Shown here one piece after another: positions 59,638-64,000 of a DNA stretch of 64,000 nucleotides. The notes beneath the pieces are model-generated. The model did not search any database. It saw nothing but the letters and a program-made list of their open reading frames with translations, and was not told the origin of the DNA. Every line of letters begins with the position of its first letter. Position 1 is the stretch's first letter. The stretch spans positions 1 through 64,000 of the IMG/VR virus record IMGVR_UViG_2562617147_000003; one strand, written 5' to 3'. This stretch comes from a virus. Its lineage: Duplodnaviria > Caudoviricetes. Position numbers and translations under genes: made by a program.

Positions 59638-61469
59638 TCAGCAAGCGGATTCCGTGTGCCCCTAAAAATGATAACTACGCCCGGCTGGCAAATTACATTG
59701 CCGCCGGGCGTGAACATGACATGCAGCAGGAGTTTAGCGATGGACAACGGCACTATGATCCGCAGCGCCACTTTGAAACAGGTCAAGGCATTGCCGGAAA
59801 CCGCATGCGTCGGCTGTCCGAATGCCGTCTGGCATCTTACTCGCAAGGACAGGAAAGAGGAGCTGCGGATTTTCTGCCTGCTGATGCACGCCTTGATCGA
59901 CGCGCCGATGGCGGCGTGCGACGGCACGCTGATCTTCCCGAAGATGTAAAACCTGAAAAATGCCTCATGAGCTGGTGCGCCGGGTGCTGGGCCGGGGACG
60001 ATTACGAGCTGGCCATCCAGGAAGTGGCCGATACCCAGGCGCTTAATACGCGCACCACCCAGGAGAAAACCTATCATCTGATTGTGAGTTTCCGGCCGGA
60101 AGATGAAACCAGGCTGACGCCGGAAACATTCAAGGCCATTGAGGAACGCTTTGCCCTGGCTTTGGGGCTATCGGAACATCAGCGGCATTGCGGCGTCCAC
60201 GTCAACACGGAAAACATGCACATGCACGTCGCTTATAATCTGATCCACCCGGAAAAGCTGACGCGCGTGGAGCCCTGGCGGGACTATATCAAGCGCGACA
60301 AGCTCTGCCGGGAGTTGGAGAAGGAATACGGCCTTGTCATCGACAACGGCCGGGATAAGGCCCAGGAACAGGGCCTTGGTGAAAGGGCCGCAACCGTGGA
60401 GGCGCACACCGGCCGACAGTCTTTTGAGGGCTACGCGCGCGACCAGGGCGAGGCCATTCTGGCCATATTGGAAAATGCGCGTTCCTGGGAGGACGTGCAT
60501 TGCGCCTTTGCCCGGCATGGCCTGGAGCTGAAGCCGCGCGGGGCCGGACTTGTGGTCAAGGACCGACATGGGCGGCACATGGCCAAGGCCAGCGCCGTGC
60601 ATCGGGATTTATCCCGGAAGAAGCTGGAAGCCCGGTTTGGAGCCTTCCAGCCATCCAGGGGAGCAATGCCGGAAAGCGAACGACGCTACGGCGCTGATCC
60701 GCTTCAGAAGGCACCGAACCGGAATCAGCTCTGGCAGGAGTTCCAGGAACAGCGCCAGGTCCAAAAAATAGGCCTGGAAGATATCCGCCGGAAGTGGGAG
60801 CAACAGCGCATGGACTTGCAGCGCAGGCCCATAGCGCGCAGGACCAGGGCTAATCTTATGAAAATGGTCCGCCAGTATGAAGCGGAAGAAATCCACGCCG
60901 CGCGCGTGAACCAGGGCGCGGGCAACTGGCTTGATTTTTTGCGGCAGAAAGCCGCCCAAGGCGACGAAACCGCCCTGGCCGTCTTACGCTCCAGAAAAGA
61001 GGAAATCGCGCCGGAGATAACGCAGAGTCGCATGCAGGCCCGCGCGGCCTATCTGGCCAGCAAGACTGCAATCCTGGAGAATGCCGAGCTTTCCACCAAA
61101 ACAAAAAACCGCCTCATCAGCGTCGCACTGATGGAGAGCCTGGCCAGTGGAACCACGGCCAGGATCAGCAAGCTCGGCAGTATCATCTATACGCTCCCCG
61201 ATGGCGGGAAAATTTGCGACACCGGGCGCAGCATCAGCTTCAGCGACGGGGCCAGGGAAACGGCCCTGGATTATATGACTGCCAAGTGGAGCGTAAAGCG
61301 AAGGCGGGTGTCTCTGGACAGGGACACAGGCGATCTCGTGTACACGCTGGACAGTGGCCAGAAGATCTATGAGCGGAAGGGGCGGAATGTCTTTGAACGG
61401 CCCGCCGTTGTCCACCGGCAGCGCCAGTTGGAGCGGGAGCGGCCCAGGAACCAGGGTATGGAGCGGTAA
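59634..61469 (+). CDS. MOBP (RP4 TraI-like) relaxase
   Basis: NYARLANYI, TYHLIVSFRP, HQR..VH.NTENMHMHVAYN.IHP. Confidence 0.9.
   Translation: MISKRIPCAPKNDNYARLANYIAAGREHDMQQEFSDGQRHYDPQRHFETGQGIAGNRMRRLSECRLASYSQGQERGAADFLPADARLDRRADGGVRRHADLPEDVKPEKCLMSWCAGCWAGDDYELAIQEVADTQALNTRTTQEKTYHLIVSFRPEDETRLTPETFKAIEERFALALGLSEHQRHCGVHVNTENMHMHVAYNLIHPEKLTRVEPWRDYIKRDKLCRELEKEYGLVIDNGRDKAQEQGLGERAATVEAHTGRQSFEGYARDQGEAILAILENARSWEDVHCAFARHGLELKPRGAGLVVKDRHGRHMAKASAVHRDLSRKKLEARFGAFQPSRGAMPESERRYGADPLQKAPNRNQLWQEFQEQRQVQKIGLEDIRRKWEQQRMDLQRRPIARRTRANLMKMVRQYEAEEIHAARVNQGAGNWLDFLRQKAAQGDETALAVLRSRKEEIAPEITQSRMQARAAYLASKTAILENAELSTKTKNRLISVALMESLASGTTARISKLGSIIYTLPDGGKICDTGRSISFSDGARETALDYMTAKWSVKRRRVSLDRDTGDLVYTLDSGQKIYERKGRNVFERPAVVHRQRQLERERPRNQGMER
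59740..59949 (+). CDS. overprinted 69-aa Cys-rich ORF inside the relaxase gene
   Basis: AGGAG RBS; CVGCPNAVW..FCLLMH..ACDG; spans the non-conserved insertion of the relaxase. Confidence 0.55.
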   Translation: MDNGTMIRSATLKQVKALPETACVGCPNAVWHLTRKDRKEELRIFCLLMHALIDAPMAACDGTLIFPKM

Positions 61470-61653
61470 CACGAATCGTCTTGCCGCGGCAGCCTGGCCA
61501 ACGAGCGCCGGCGCGGCTGATCCGGCCGGCACGGCCGAGGCCTTCATGATAATAACTTACTATGATATCTTGATTTTCAAAATATAGCGTTTCCTAGACG
61601 GCGCACATGAAAATTTTTCTAGGTAACACGAATTTCAAAAAAGCCAGGTTCAG

Positions 61654-61866
61654 ATGGACAGCAGGAAGAAAATCATCATGTCGGTATCCAGGTTCTTAGA
61701 CGACCCGGCTGCGTGGTGGGAAAAGCGAAAATGGGCGATTGCTCTTGGTGTCGTCACTGTGACCTTGTTACACGCCCTCATTGACATGGGCATCATTGAT
61801 CTGAGGGCCACGTTTGTTTGGCTGGCCATCTGGACCAACCCTCTTACAGGGCTTTTTCTCTTCTGA
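61654..61866 (+). CDS. small membrane protein
   Basis: 70 aa, two hydrophobic segments. Confidence 0.45.
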   Translation: MDSRKKIIMSVSRFLDDPAAWWEKRKWAIALGVVTVTLLHALIDMGIIDLRATFVWLAIWTNPLTGLFLF

Positions 61867-61881
61867 AACATCTTTTCTGCA

Positions 61882-62190
61882 TTGCCGGGCGTGGGTTTGC
61901 CTGCTAGGCTGACCCGGCACGGCTACCCTCTGGCCTGAAAGCGTCGGCACGGCGCAAACGGAAAAAGGAGGGCACAGCCATGCGGAAACTTGTTTTCGCT
62001 CTGCTTGTCGCTGTGGCCCTGGTCCTCTTACTGACGTCTGACGCCAGATAAGAGTTGACCCCGGCCCATTAGCGGTGGGCCGGGGTCGAAAAAAGGAAAC
62101 CGTGTCGGTAGCCGTGCACGGGGGCGCTAACCGCGCCGTGCCAGCCCCGGTATCTGTCCCCACAGATGCCGGGGTTCCCTTTTTAGATAA
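61882..62190 (+). other. structured transcription unit A (type I toxin-like)
   Basis: TTGCCG-17-TAGGCT promoter, leader repeats, RBS, peptide, hairpin, complementary 3' segments, terminator. Confidence 0.75.
61980..62051 (+). CDS. 23-aa hydrophobic peptide MRKLVFALLVAVALVLLLTSDAR
   Basis: AAGGAGG RBS; basic N-terminus + single TM helix. Confidence 0.75.
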   Translation: MRKLVFALLVAVALVLLLTSDAR

Positions 62191-62298
62191 GGCAGTAGCG
62201 GGTGAATGTCCAGCCCGGCCTAGCGGGCTCAGACCCAATTTATATTGTGCAATATAAATTCAACAGGCAATAGACTTGGCAATGTAGCCGCCCTTTAG

Positions 62299-62697
62299 TT
62301 GATCCGTACCCACCTTGTGCCTGTCCAGGGTGGGCAAGACACGTTAGCCTACCCGGAACTGTTCGTTCTTATGGGCAGCCAGGTGCCGGATTTGAGGGGG
62401 CTGTTTCTGCGTGGGCACGGGGGCAAGAGCGCTGCTCTGGGAGTCCAGCAGGGCGACGCTATACGGAATATTACTGGTGGCTTTGTCCCAGGCAATCAAT
62501 ATGCAAACGCGGGCATTAAAAACACTTCAGGGATCTTTCGACCTGGAGGAGCCTTTGGACGCAATGACTTCCGGGAATCAGGAGCAAACAGCTCCCCGGA
62601 TGAAGTTATTCTCGACGCATCCCTACAAGTGCCCACAGCCGAGGAAACTCGCCCGGTGAATCTGGCTGTGCGCTACCTGATCCGCGCCAAGCCCTGA
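62299..62697 (+). CDS. headless tail-collar cassette 1
   Basis: AYPELF..QVPDLRGLFLRGHGG..GDAIRNITG..PTAEETRPVNLAVRYLIRAKP. Confidence 0.75.
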   Translation: MIRTHLVPVQGGQDTLAYPELFVLMGSQVPDLRGLFLRGHGGKSAALGVQQGDAIRNITGGFVPGNQYANAGIKNTSGIFRPGGAFGRNDFRESGANSSPDEVILDASLQVPTAEETRPVNLAVRYLIRAKP

Positions 62698-62722
62698 TGC
62701 TTGCCAAACAGGCATGGAGACG

Positions 62723-63036
62723 TTATCTAAAAAGGGAACCCCGGCCCCTGCGCGAACAGGAACCGGGGCTGGCACGGCGCGGTTAGCGCCCCCGTGCACG
62801 ACTACCGCAGCGTTTTTACCTACGGCCCCGTATCAGGTGTAAGCTGATACGGGGCCAGCCTCATCTAAGGCCGACTATCGCCCCGCAACAGCAGGGCGAG
62901 AAGTACCAGCAACACCAAGACGGCAAAGCGTCTCATGTGATGGCACCCCCTTTGATAGTTTGCGCCGTGCCGGGCGCAGATCAGGAAGGGGGTAGCCGTG
63001 CCCGTTCCTTATATCCACATTCATCCCGCCCGGCAA
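62723..63036 (-). other. structured transcription unit B (inverted paralog of A)
   Basis: TTGCCG-17-TATAAG promoter; same scaffold as A with different hairpin sequences. Confidence 0.75.
62865..62936 (-). CDS. 23-aa hydrophobic peptide MRRFAVLVLLVLLALLLRGDSRP
   Basis: AAGGGGG RBS; same length and position as the peptide in unit A. Confidence 0.75.
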   Translation of the reverse strand: MRRFAVLVLLVLLALLLRGDSRP

Positions 63037-63408
63037 CGCTTTGCCGAGCAACACGGCGCGTACCCGGAACTGTCCGCGCTTCTCGGCGGCCAAGTGCCGG
63101 ATTTGAGGGGCTTGTTCCTGCGTGGCCACGGGGGGAACAGCGCTGAATTAGGCTCACCTCAGGGGCATGCCATGCGCGACATATCTTCAGCGGGCAGCAT
63201 CAGCGTAGGGTTCGGAGGGTATCTGACAGGAAATGGGATTTTTAAGCCTGTTGGTAGTCATGGCGTGGTTGTCATTAGGGGCTCGTGGGACGGCAATTGG
63301 GGGAGCACTGCTTATGGACTTGATCTTTCTGCCGGTGGTGTACCTGTGGCCAATGAGGTTCGGCCTGACAACCAAGCGGTACGATTTTTAGTCCGCGCCC
63401 GCCCGTGA
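62998..63408 (+). CDS. headless tail-collar cassette 2
   Basis: AYPELS..QVPDLRGLFLRGHGG...EVRPDNQAVRFLVRARP. Confidence 0.75.
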   Translation: MPVPYIHIHPARQRFAEQHGAYPELSALLGGQVPDLRGLFLRGHGGNSAELGSPQGHAMRDISSAGSISVGFGGYLTGNGIFKPVGSHGVVVIRGSWDGNWGSTAYGLDLSAGGVPVANEVRPDNQAVRFLVRARP

Positions 63409-63590
63409 ATTATGCTCTCCGCGTGCCACCCGGATTTTTGGTCAGAGTCCGGGTGACTCGCAGGAGTAACACGAATGACCTTGCAGTCGCTGATCCGGAA
63501 CCAGGTCGGCCGATTCGCTAACTCGCTGAAATTTAAGATGGTGAGATTTTAGGCCAGTAGCACGAAATTACAAAATCCCATCCCATTTCC

Positions 63591-63980
63591 TTATGGCCGG
63601 GCGCGGACAAGGTACCTAACCGCCTGATTGGCAGGGCGATTTTCTTCAGCGGTCGGAACGACACGAGAGAGGTCAAAGCCGACGCCATTACCGGACCAAG
63701 TACCGTAAGAGCTGCGAATATCTTCAGCGCATCCGCCCGTGCGATAGAAAACCCCACCGGCTGAAGCGGAACCGTGTTGGCCGAAACTGCCGGTTATATT
63801 TCGTATGGCGTCACCTTGCCGGACGCCCAGCGCTGCCGAGTCGCCCCCGTGACCACGAAGAAACAGCCCCCGCAGATCGGGCACCTGGCCGCCCACAACC
63901 GCGAACAGTTCCGGGTACGCGCGGGGCTGACTGGCAAAGCGTTGCCGGGCGAGAAGAATCCAGATATAAGAAGCGGACAC
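63591..63980 (-). CDS. headless tail-collar cassette 3
   Basis: AYPELF..QVPDLRGLFLRGHGG..GDAIRNITG..PTAEENRPANQAVRYLVRARP. Confidence 0.75.
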   Translation of the reverse strand: MSASYIWILLARQRFASQPRAYPELFAVVGGQVPDLRGLFLRGHGGDSAALGVRQGDAIRNITGSFGQHGSASAGGVFYRTGGCAEDIRSSYGTWSGNGVGFDLSRVVPTAEENRPANQAVRYLVRARP

Positions 63981-64000
63981 GGCTACCCCCTATGCGTCGG
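63942..64000 (+). other. 5' end of structured unit C (runs off the window)
   Basis: TTGCCG-17-TATAAG, then CACGGCTACCC...GCGTCGG as in unit A. Confidence 0.65.

Follow-up and report, generated by a model that had tools for sequence, protein, structure and literature searches.

We analysed a stretch of 64,000 nucleotides (nt), referred to here as the window, which is the first 64 kb of the 74,045-bp IMG/VR "provirus" record IMGVR_UViG_2562617147_000003; the remainder was fetched as L010, that is, record positions 60001-74045. The right end of the window carries three copies (units A, B, and C) of a short module that probably represents an uncatalogued type I toxin-antitoxin-like family of Desulfovibrionaceae. 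We favor this interpretation because the units share a conserved open reading frame (ORF) for a small membrane peptide, covarying long-range pairings in the mRNA, multi-copy and often tandem occurrence, and a conserved convergent antisense promoter. The original prediction, made from the letters of the window, had likewise proposed an unannotated type I family; its features and the lack of any catalogue match held up at the sequence level, while the toxin and antitoxin roles stay putative.

Anatomy and occurrence of the units

All features listed for the three units were located at their coordinates in a sequence check, and this agreed with the original prediction, which had placed unit A at 61882-62190 (plus strand), unit B at 62723-63036 (minus strand), and unit C from 63942 onwards (plus strand) and had assigned a sigma70-like promoter and a leader to each, and to the complete units A and B also the 3′ segments complementary to the leader and a terminator. 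The order common to the units is a TTGCCG-17-TA... promoter, the leader GCACGGCTACC (seg1), GGCACGGCGC (seg2), an AAAGGRGGG Shine-Dalgarno (SD) sequence, a 23-codon ORF, and a GC hairpin, and the 3′ part of each unit consists of GGTAGCCGTGC (seg1′) and GCGCCGTGCC (seg2′), followed by a 15-bp terminator stem with a UUCCCUUUUU tail. The functional unit reaches about 40 nt beyond each terminator, to a conserved antisense promoter that had not been listed before; the module is self-contained and about 340 bp long.

In unit A, the sense promoter (61882-61910, plus strand) comprises TTGCCG (61882-61887), a 17-nt spacer, and TAGGCT (61905-61910). The predicted mRNA of about 270 nt (61917-62186, plus strand), supported by a covariance model match of 281 bits, a fold z-score of −6.5, and covariation, contains seg1 (61917-61927), an anti-SD (61926-61931), seg2 (61946-61955), the SD AGGAGGG (61966-61972), the ORF for the 23-aa peptide MRKLVFALLVAVALVLLLTSDAR (61980-62051), the post-ORF hairpin (62057-62087), seg1′ (62107-62117), seg2′ (62133-62142), and the terminator (62143-62186). 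Its antisense promoter (62184-62212, minus strand; TGGACA at 62212-62207, a 17-nt spacer, and TATCTA at 62189-62184) is directed leftwards into the terminator. Immediately upstream of unit A, an ORF of 70 aa (61654-61866), which contains a predicted membrane segment, matched no Pfam or NCBIfam family.

Unit B has the same parts on the minus strand. Its sense promoter (63008-63036; TTGCCG at 63036-63031, a 17-nt spacer, and TATAAG at 63013-63008) precedes a predicted mRNA at 62727-63001 (244 bits; fold z-score of −7.3), in which seg1 (62991-63001), seg2 (62962-62971), the SD (62946-62950), the ORF encoding MRRFAVLVLLVLLALLLRGDSRP (62865-62936), the hairpin (62824-62856), seg1′ (62796-62806), seg2′ (62771-62780), and the terminator (62727-62770) follow one another, and its antisense promoter is found on the plus strand at 62701-62729 (TTGCCA at 62701-62706, a 17-nt spacer, and TATCTA at 62724-62729). 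Unit C (268 bits) is cut by the window end, and its part within the window (63942-64000, plus strand) holds TTGCCG (63942-63947), TATAAG (63965-63970), and the mRNA start at about 63977. It is complete in the parent record, where the mRNA at 63977-64253 (L010 3977-4253) encodes a third 23-aa peptide, MLRLLLTTLVALILVLLLASSAR; the unit ends at about 64253 of the record, and its antisense promoter lies beyond.

A covariance model, R1, was built from the three copies, which matched it with E values of 1e-68 to 1e-79. The RNA folds of units A, B, and C were 6.5 to 7.5 standard deviations below those of shuffled controls, and a terminator scan detected the terminators of all three. Because of these E values, folds, and terminators, the occurrence of the units is far beyond chance. 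The −10 boxes of the unit promoters lack the final T, which is why a simple promoter scan missed them.

To define the extent of the family, a pattern scan covered 185,579 species genomes, and the loci were then scored with R1. Most of the 120 species-genome pattern matches were chance matches in GC-rich genomes, and R1-confirmed full-length copies among the pattern-scan loci were restricted to Desulfovibrionaceae (Desulfovibrio and Bilophila assemblies). Copies were present in 10 of the 151 Desulfovibrionaceae genomes sampled, at 2 to 13 per genome. When whole genomes were searched, Desulfovibrio sp. ZJ369 yielded 13 matches and a Bilophila metagenome-assembled genome (MAG) yielded 18; the covariance-model search of this family of bacteria that had been proposed with the original prediction returned both full-length copies and covariation. 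Tandem copies are frequent. A stretch (L097, positions 1-2330) of contig NZ_JAAKEI010000054.1 of Desulfovibrio sp. ZJ369 carries an array of four full copies and one partial copy at the edge, all on a single strand, with more copies upstream on the contig, and another locus (L119) carries two. In the ZJ369 array, each unit is followed only by the last 20 to 32 codons of a tail-collar gene on the opposite strand, and these repeats look like decayed modules of a unit plus a cassette end. With 2 to 18 matches per carrier genome and tandem arrays, the family displays the multi-copy and tandem arrangement, often on mobile elements, that characterizes type I loci.

Database searches assigned the units to no known group. 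No Rfam family was matched on either strand at E ≤ 1, the three peptides gave nothing meaningful against Pfam and NCBIfam (the only hint was LPAM_1 at an E value of 0.69), unit A had no blastn match in plasmid and phage collections, and a further IMG/VR pattern scan produced four chance matches, none of which was confirmed by the covariance model. The units therefore belong to no type I family catalogued as an Rfam RNA or as a Pfam or NCBIfam toxin. In the literature, we found no paper on this family and no description of a type I system in Desulfovibrio or Bilophila. A simple terminal-inverted-repeat element, such as a miniature inverted-repeat transposable element, was considered and ruled out, since the order 1,2...1′,2′ of the paired segments is not that of inverted termini.

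Peptide gene, mRNA folding, and antisense promoter

Conservation of the peptide gene was evaluated on a set of 64 copies. An ATG ORF behind the SD was kept in 61 of them, and 60 of these 61 ORFs have 22 to 25 codons. The entropy at codon positions 1, 2, and 3 amounted to 1.28, 0.72, and 1.41 bits, respectively, position 2 being the most and position 3 the least constrained, and the length differences between copies are whole codons, with a dN/dS of about 0.5. Judged by this coding-type substitution pattern, the short ORF is a real gene, although UTR (untranslated region) conservation exceeds that of the ORF in the three window copies. Two types of peptide recur, MRKLVFAAxIALxLVLLLASDAR and MRRFVVLVLLVLLALLLRGDSRP. 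The peptides are 22 to 25 aa long and 65 to 85% hydrophobic; a basic N terminus (R/K) is followed by a hydrophobic core, about 16 residues long, and the tail is polar and of the ASDAR or GDSRP type. They thus combine the small size, hydrophobicity, predicted transmembrane segment, and polar or charged tail described for type I toxins (PMC2887945).

The end of the ORF is biased in addition. AGA makes up 33% of the Arg codons in the peptide ORFs, versus 4 to 6% in long ORFs, and TAA accounts for 71% of the stops, versus about 24%. Owing to this strong preference for AGA as the final sense codon and TAA as the stop, the antisense strand reads UUAUCU just past the post-ORF hairpin, which is itself nearly strand-symmetric. 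This bias amounts to an extra nucleotide-level constraint, and it fits a second, antisense-strand function of the ORF end.

In the minimum-energy folds of all three units, the 5′ end of the mRNA is paired with the GGUAGCCGUGC segment. On an alignment of 14 copies, 91.8% of the cells were paired, compared with about 42% in slid controls, and 29 pairs had changed on both sides, including pairs of the closing helix and of the anti-SD:SD helix. Compensatory changes were also found in the second long-range pairing and in both hairpins, which had been noted to differ in sequence between units A and B and to stay paired nonetheless. The anti-SD, situated directly after the 5′ segment, covaries with the SD, CCCUCU occurring with GGAGGG and CCCCCU with GGGGGU. 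Segment pairing was then scored on the 41 distinct segment combinations of the 64-copy set, for which slid controls gave 3 to 39%. The seg1:seg1′ helix, which closes the mRNA from 5′ to 3′ end, was 97% paired, with alternative pairs (e.g., CG/UA, 20:17; AU/GC, 18:18). The seg2:seg2′ helix was 90% paired overall and about 98% paired over ten core positions (GGCACGGCGC with GCGCCGUGCC), and it showed at least six independent compensatory variants, e.g., GGCGCGGCGC/GCGCCGCGCC, GGUGCGGCGC/GCGCCGCACC, and AGCACGGUGC/GCACCGUGCU. The G:U pairs are compatible with the sense strand only.

Given the order 1,2...1′,2′, the two long-range helices cross, and the mRNA must form either a pseudoknot or two alternating states. 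Mutually exclusive folds had been suggested for the units; both pairings are indeed conserved and covarying, but a pseudoknot is also allowed, so exclusive folds are one of two options. Half of each second segment is contained in a local hairpin (GCGYC/GGCGC in the 5′ UTR and GGCGC/GCGCC in the 3′ UTR), and these hairpins change in step with the segments, as a strand-exchange switch would require. The SD had a mean unpaired probability of 0.25 in computed folding, and prediction and covariation together point to a translation-blocking fold with SD occlusion and long-range pairing, as in type I toxin mRNAs. The terminator tail UUCCCUUUUU (e.g., 62177-62186 in unit A) is nearly invariant and complementary to AAAAAGG/AAAGGG of the SD region, and it could act as a second, 3′-terminal anti-SD. 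The TGGCAC motif of the 3′ UTR was also considered as part of a sigma-54 promoter and rejected by eye, as its spacing to the GC element is wrong.

Both promoters are conserved. The sense promoter is a TTG...TAtA box pair, and across 62 distinct upstream contexts its spacing to the start of the mRNA is constant. When the DNA beyond each terminator was aligned on the opposite strand, TTGCCA or TTGACA, 17 nt, TATnnA, and then AAAAGGGAACCCCGG appeared at the same position past the terminator in 53 distinct copies, with box counts of T49 T37 G39 C30 C37 A40 and T40 A43 T35 n n A44, and the sequence outside the −35 box was unrelated between contexts. This conserved promoter predicts a convergent, 3′-overlapping antisense RNA, which would start opposite the terminator U-tail and extend over the complements of the two 3′ UTR segments. 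No other antisense promoter is conserved, and the units have no leader ORF. The post-ORF hairpin with its UUAUCU-like tract is a weak candidate for the antisense terminator. In those class-level features that can be read from sequence, the family conforms to type I systems.

While the anatomy of the units, their conservation, their covariation, and the conservation of their promoters were observed, the following model infers that the units are transcribed, that the antisense RNA is the antitoxin, that the peptide is toxic, and how the module is activated. A sigma70-type promoter would drive an mRNA of about 270 nt for a membrane peptide of 22 to 25 aa, and three locks would hold this mRNA: its first 11 nt would pair with a 3′ UTR segment located about 190 nt downstream, the following 4 to 8 nt (CCCUCU or CCCCCU) with the SD, and GGCACGGCGC in the 5′ UTR with the second 3′ UTR segment across the first helix, yielding either a pseudoknot or an alternative state reached via strand exchange between the two local hairpins. 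The full-length mRNA would be locked and translationally silent. From the promoter beyond the terminator, a convergent antisense RNA would be made over the terminator and both 3′ UTR segments and would serve as the putative antitoxin. Being complementary to the 3′ UTR, it would have the same letters as the 5′ segments of the mRNA and would therefore compete with them. Once bound, it would set the 5′ end free and form a long duplex with the mRNA, and both effects would favor decay by analogy with RatA and SR4. Upon loss of the antisense RNA, stable mRNA would be processed and translated, and the peptide would putatively damage the membrane.

Several points weigh against a toxin-antitoxin role. 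Many small membrane proteins are harmless, and the toxicity of these peptides is putative. A search of sequencing runs revealed no RNA run containing the stretch, both transcripts being predicted from sequence, and the predicted −10 boxes TATAAG (sense) and TATCTA (antisense) lack the usual final T. Folds of the first 95 to 145 nt of the predicted antisense RNA contained no conserved hairpin with a U-run, and simple in silico truncations from the 5′ or the 3′ end left the SD closed, with no activation route evident. Finally, the database T1TAdb catalogues the convergent layout with 3′ overlap for Gram-positive and not for Gram-negative families, the latter having internal or 5′ antisense RNAs (PMC8594479).

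Instead, the small membrane protein encoded by the units could be an ordinary one without toxicity, such as a modulator of a membrane complex, in which case the structured mRNA would serve stability or conditional translation and the antisense transcription would be regulatory, without any toxin-antitoxin logic. Such a gene would accord with an ORF and a structure that are conserved while toxicity is only putative, with a peptide that resembles a signal peptide or a generic transmembrane helix (the sole Pfam hint being LPAM_1 at an E value of 0.69), and with the location of some copies in ordinary chromosomal intergenic regions. However, 2 to 18 diverged and often tandem matches per genome are typical of type I systems and unusual for a housekeeping gene, copies also adjoin mobile-element genes, and the combination of SD occlusion, a 5′-3′ lock, and a convergent antisense promoter matches known toxin mRNAs. 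We regard this explanation as unlikely but by no means negligible. It is very improbable that the units are non-coding structured RNAs (small RNAs or cis-regulatory elements) with an incidental short ORF. The higher conservation of the UTRs in the window copies and the very strong covariation would be expected of such RNAs, whereas an ATG, a correctly spaced SD, and an intact frame in 61 of 64 copies, differences in length by whole codons, and the constraint pattern at codon positions 2 and 3 would not, and an anti-SD:SD helix makes sense only if ribosome binding matters.

Tail-collar cassettes and the surrounding element

In the window, the type I-like units alternate with three headless tail-collar cassettes in both orientations. 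Cassette 1 (62299-62697, plus strand; 62% tblastn identity to residues 80-189 of a full-length Collar protein) converges with its 3′ end on unit B, the antisense promoter of which lies directly 3′ of the cassette stop codon. Cassette 2 (62998-63408, plus strand; tblastn match to the same protein) overlaps with its 5′ end the promoter and 5′ end of unit B, the sense promoter of unit B lying on the strand opposite to the cassette ORF. Likewise, the 5′ end of cassette 3 (63591-63980, minus strand; 64% tblastn identity to residues 77-189) overlaps the promoter and 5′ end of unit C. The full-length Collar protein itself (PF07484; 189 aa, with a signal peptide) is encoded at record 64283-64852 (L010 4283-4852, minus strand). 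A 175-aa signal-peptide protein encoded just upstream of its gene (record 64880-65407; L010 4880-5407, minus strand) may be its partner; no match to this 175-aa protein was obtained in Pfam or NCBIfam.

On a public metagenome contig, codon 90 of the full-length gene is joined in frame to codon 33 of cassette 2, which lies on the opposite strand, and the joint (L010 3094<->4583) shares 11 nt. It fits DNA inversion within the conserved coding stretch GGQVPDLRG, and the cassette locus looks like a shufflon-like switch. Another, weaker opposite-strand joint, 63056/64554, was not counted as evidence, given its 33-nt side and non-homologous positions. The element in which the locus resides encodes a relaxase, a Rha-family regulator, and a tyrosine recombinase, and it has MobC-, TrbJ-, and TrbL-like genes named from ORF translations only; no tRNA gene adjoins the integrase genes. 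About 4 kb to the left of the cassettes, an AT-rich patch encodes a 287-aa tyrosine recombinase (PF00589; 57334-58197), and this enzyme is a candidate for the invertase that would drive the switch. Direct repeats GGTAACACGAAT(C/G)..CTTGC and GGTAACACGAATTTCAAAA occur at 61465-61484, 61622-61640, 63465-63484, and 63559-63577. One pair comes after the relaxase gene, and the spacer that separates cassettes 2 and 3 contains a similar one; the repeats could be oriT-like or recombinase sites.

Junctions between units and cassettes recur in at least four other genomes. By strict motifs, about 13 of the 64 units (about a fifth) touch a cassette, and about 51 have none adjacent. The module is autonomous from the cassettes, since only this minority touches one and other copies are found in plain chromosomal intergenic regions. 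In a Bilophila MAG, for instance, two copies lie between genes of aromatic amino-acid synthesis (EPSP-synthase-like and prephenate-dehydrogenase-like) on one side and a flagellar hook-like gene on the other, all named from their ORF translations. Addiction modules interleaved with variable cassettes had been envisaged for this locus; the interleaving was borne out by the recurrent junctions, but the many units devoid of a cassette leave a module that guards cassettes a conjecture.

On the opposite strand of every unit, the anti-SD and the 5′ segment have AGGGGGTAGCCGTG as their reverse complement, in which an SD-like box precedes a GTG, and this sequence heads the ORFs of cassettes 2 and 3 (62991-63001 and 63977-63987). 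In a Bilophila array (L155), the antisense promoter of the neighboring unit points in the same direction as the cassettes. Because of these heads and this promoter direction, the cassettes might not be fully silent.

A more elaborate version of the type I-like model, which we consider doubtful, couples two ideas: the antitoxin would mimic the 5′ end of the mRNA and displace the 5′ UTR, converting a locked, stable form into an exposed, degradable one and back, and the modules would be wired into the tail-collar arrays. Under such wiring, they could guard, or read into, the segments of a switch that works by DNA inversion and serves a secreted, adhesin-like protein. The idea stems from the antisense promoter right after the stop codon of each cassette and from the SD and GTG that the reverse complement of the anti-SD supplies to cassettes 2 and 3.

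That the units are not genes at all, and instead belong to the tail-collar cassette switch at the DNA level, as sites of recombination or as homology arms used in inversion or gene conversion, is extremely improbable: they abut the 5′ and 3′ ends of cassettes here and in at least four other genomes, and the metagenome contig does carry an inverted, in-frame alternative junction at the locus, but that junction falls inside a conserved coding stretch (GGQ|VPDLRG) and not inside a unit, about 51 of 64 copies have, by strict motifs, no neighboring cassette, the G:U pairs make the helices strand-specific and hence RNA rather than DNA, and promoter, SD, ORF, and terminator are all conserved.

Comparison with known type I systems

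The bsrG/SR4 and txpA/RatA systems of Bacillus subtilis likewise consist of a small hydrophobic peptide gene and a convergent antisense gene that overlaps the 3′ end of the toxin mRNA (PMC8594479). The units agree with this layout by promoter position only; they have no sequence or Rfam similarity to these systems, and nothing indicates homology. Whereas that layout is catalogued for Gram-positive hosts, the host here is a Gram-negative member of Desulfobacterota, and the peptide (23 aa) is much shorter than the two B. subtilis toxins (38 and 59 aa). Moreover, the predicted overlap covers 3′ UTR segments that hold the mRNA's own 5′ UTR, a situation that to our knowledge has not been described for bsrG/SR4 or txpA/RatA.

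In the hok mRNA of plasmid R1 and the aapA1 mRNA of Helicobacter pylori, a 3′ segment far away in the sequence pairs with the 5′ end, and the SD is occluded. The units resemble hok/sok and aapA1/isoA1 in these respects and in a full-length mRNA that is predicted to be inert, and we know of no counterpart in either system to the crossing seg2:seg2′ helix. The antisense RNAs of hok/sok and aapA1/isoA1 lie in the 5′ part of the mRNA (PMC8594479; aapA1 is also summarized in PMC5416894), in contrast to the 3′ end predicted here. The hok/sok type is defined by an antisense RNA directed at the 5′ leader or at an overlapping leader ORF (mok) and by 3′ processing that takes off the fold-back element, whereas the units have no mok-like ORF and carry their sole conserved antisense promoter at the 3′ end.

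Both the ibs/sib and the ldr/rdl systems of Escherichia coli (QUAD and LDR repeats) likewise encode very short hydrophobic peptides, the Ibs peptides being 18 to 19 aa in length. They, too, are repeated and often tandem intergenic units that annotation pipelines have missed, and tandem repeats of short transmembrane ORFs are a recognized signature of type I loci (PMC2887945). However, Sib spans the whole ibs ORF (PMC8594479), unlike the predicted 3′ overlap of the units, which share no sequence similarity with ibs/sib or ldr/rdl and differ from them in mRNA architecture.

According to a 2025 paper (PMC12390103), type I systems are so far known only from Proteobacteria, Firmicutes, and Tenericutes. 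The family described here would contribute a peptide gene of gut sulfate reducers, Bilophila among them, that is unannotated, multi-copy, and RNA-controlled, together with a well-supported case of an mRNA in which two crossing helices, both covarying, tie the 5′ UTR to the 3′ UTR. The covariance model could be used by annotation pipelines, and it flags loci at which such modules lie within a surface-protein locus that can switch; should the peptides be toxic, the family would bear on mobile-element stability, phage defense, or persistence in these bacteria. As far as can be read from their letters, the units combine a hok/aapA1-like 5′-3′ lock with the 3′-overlap layout of bsrG/SR4 and txpA/RatA in a Desulfobacterota host.

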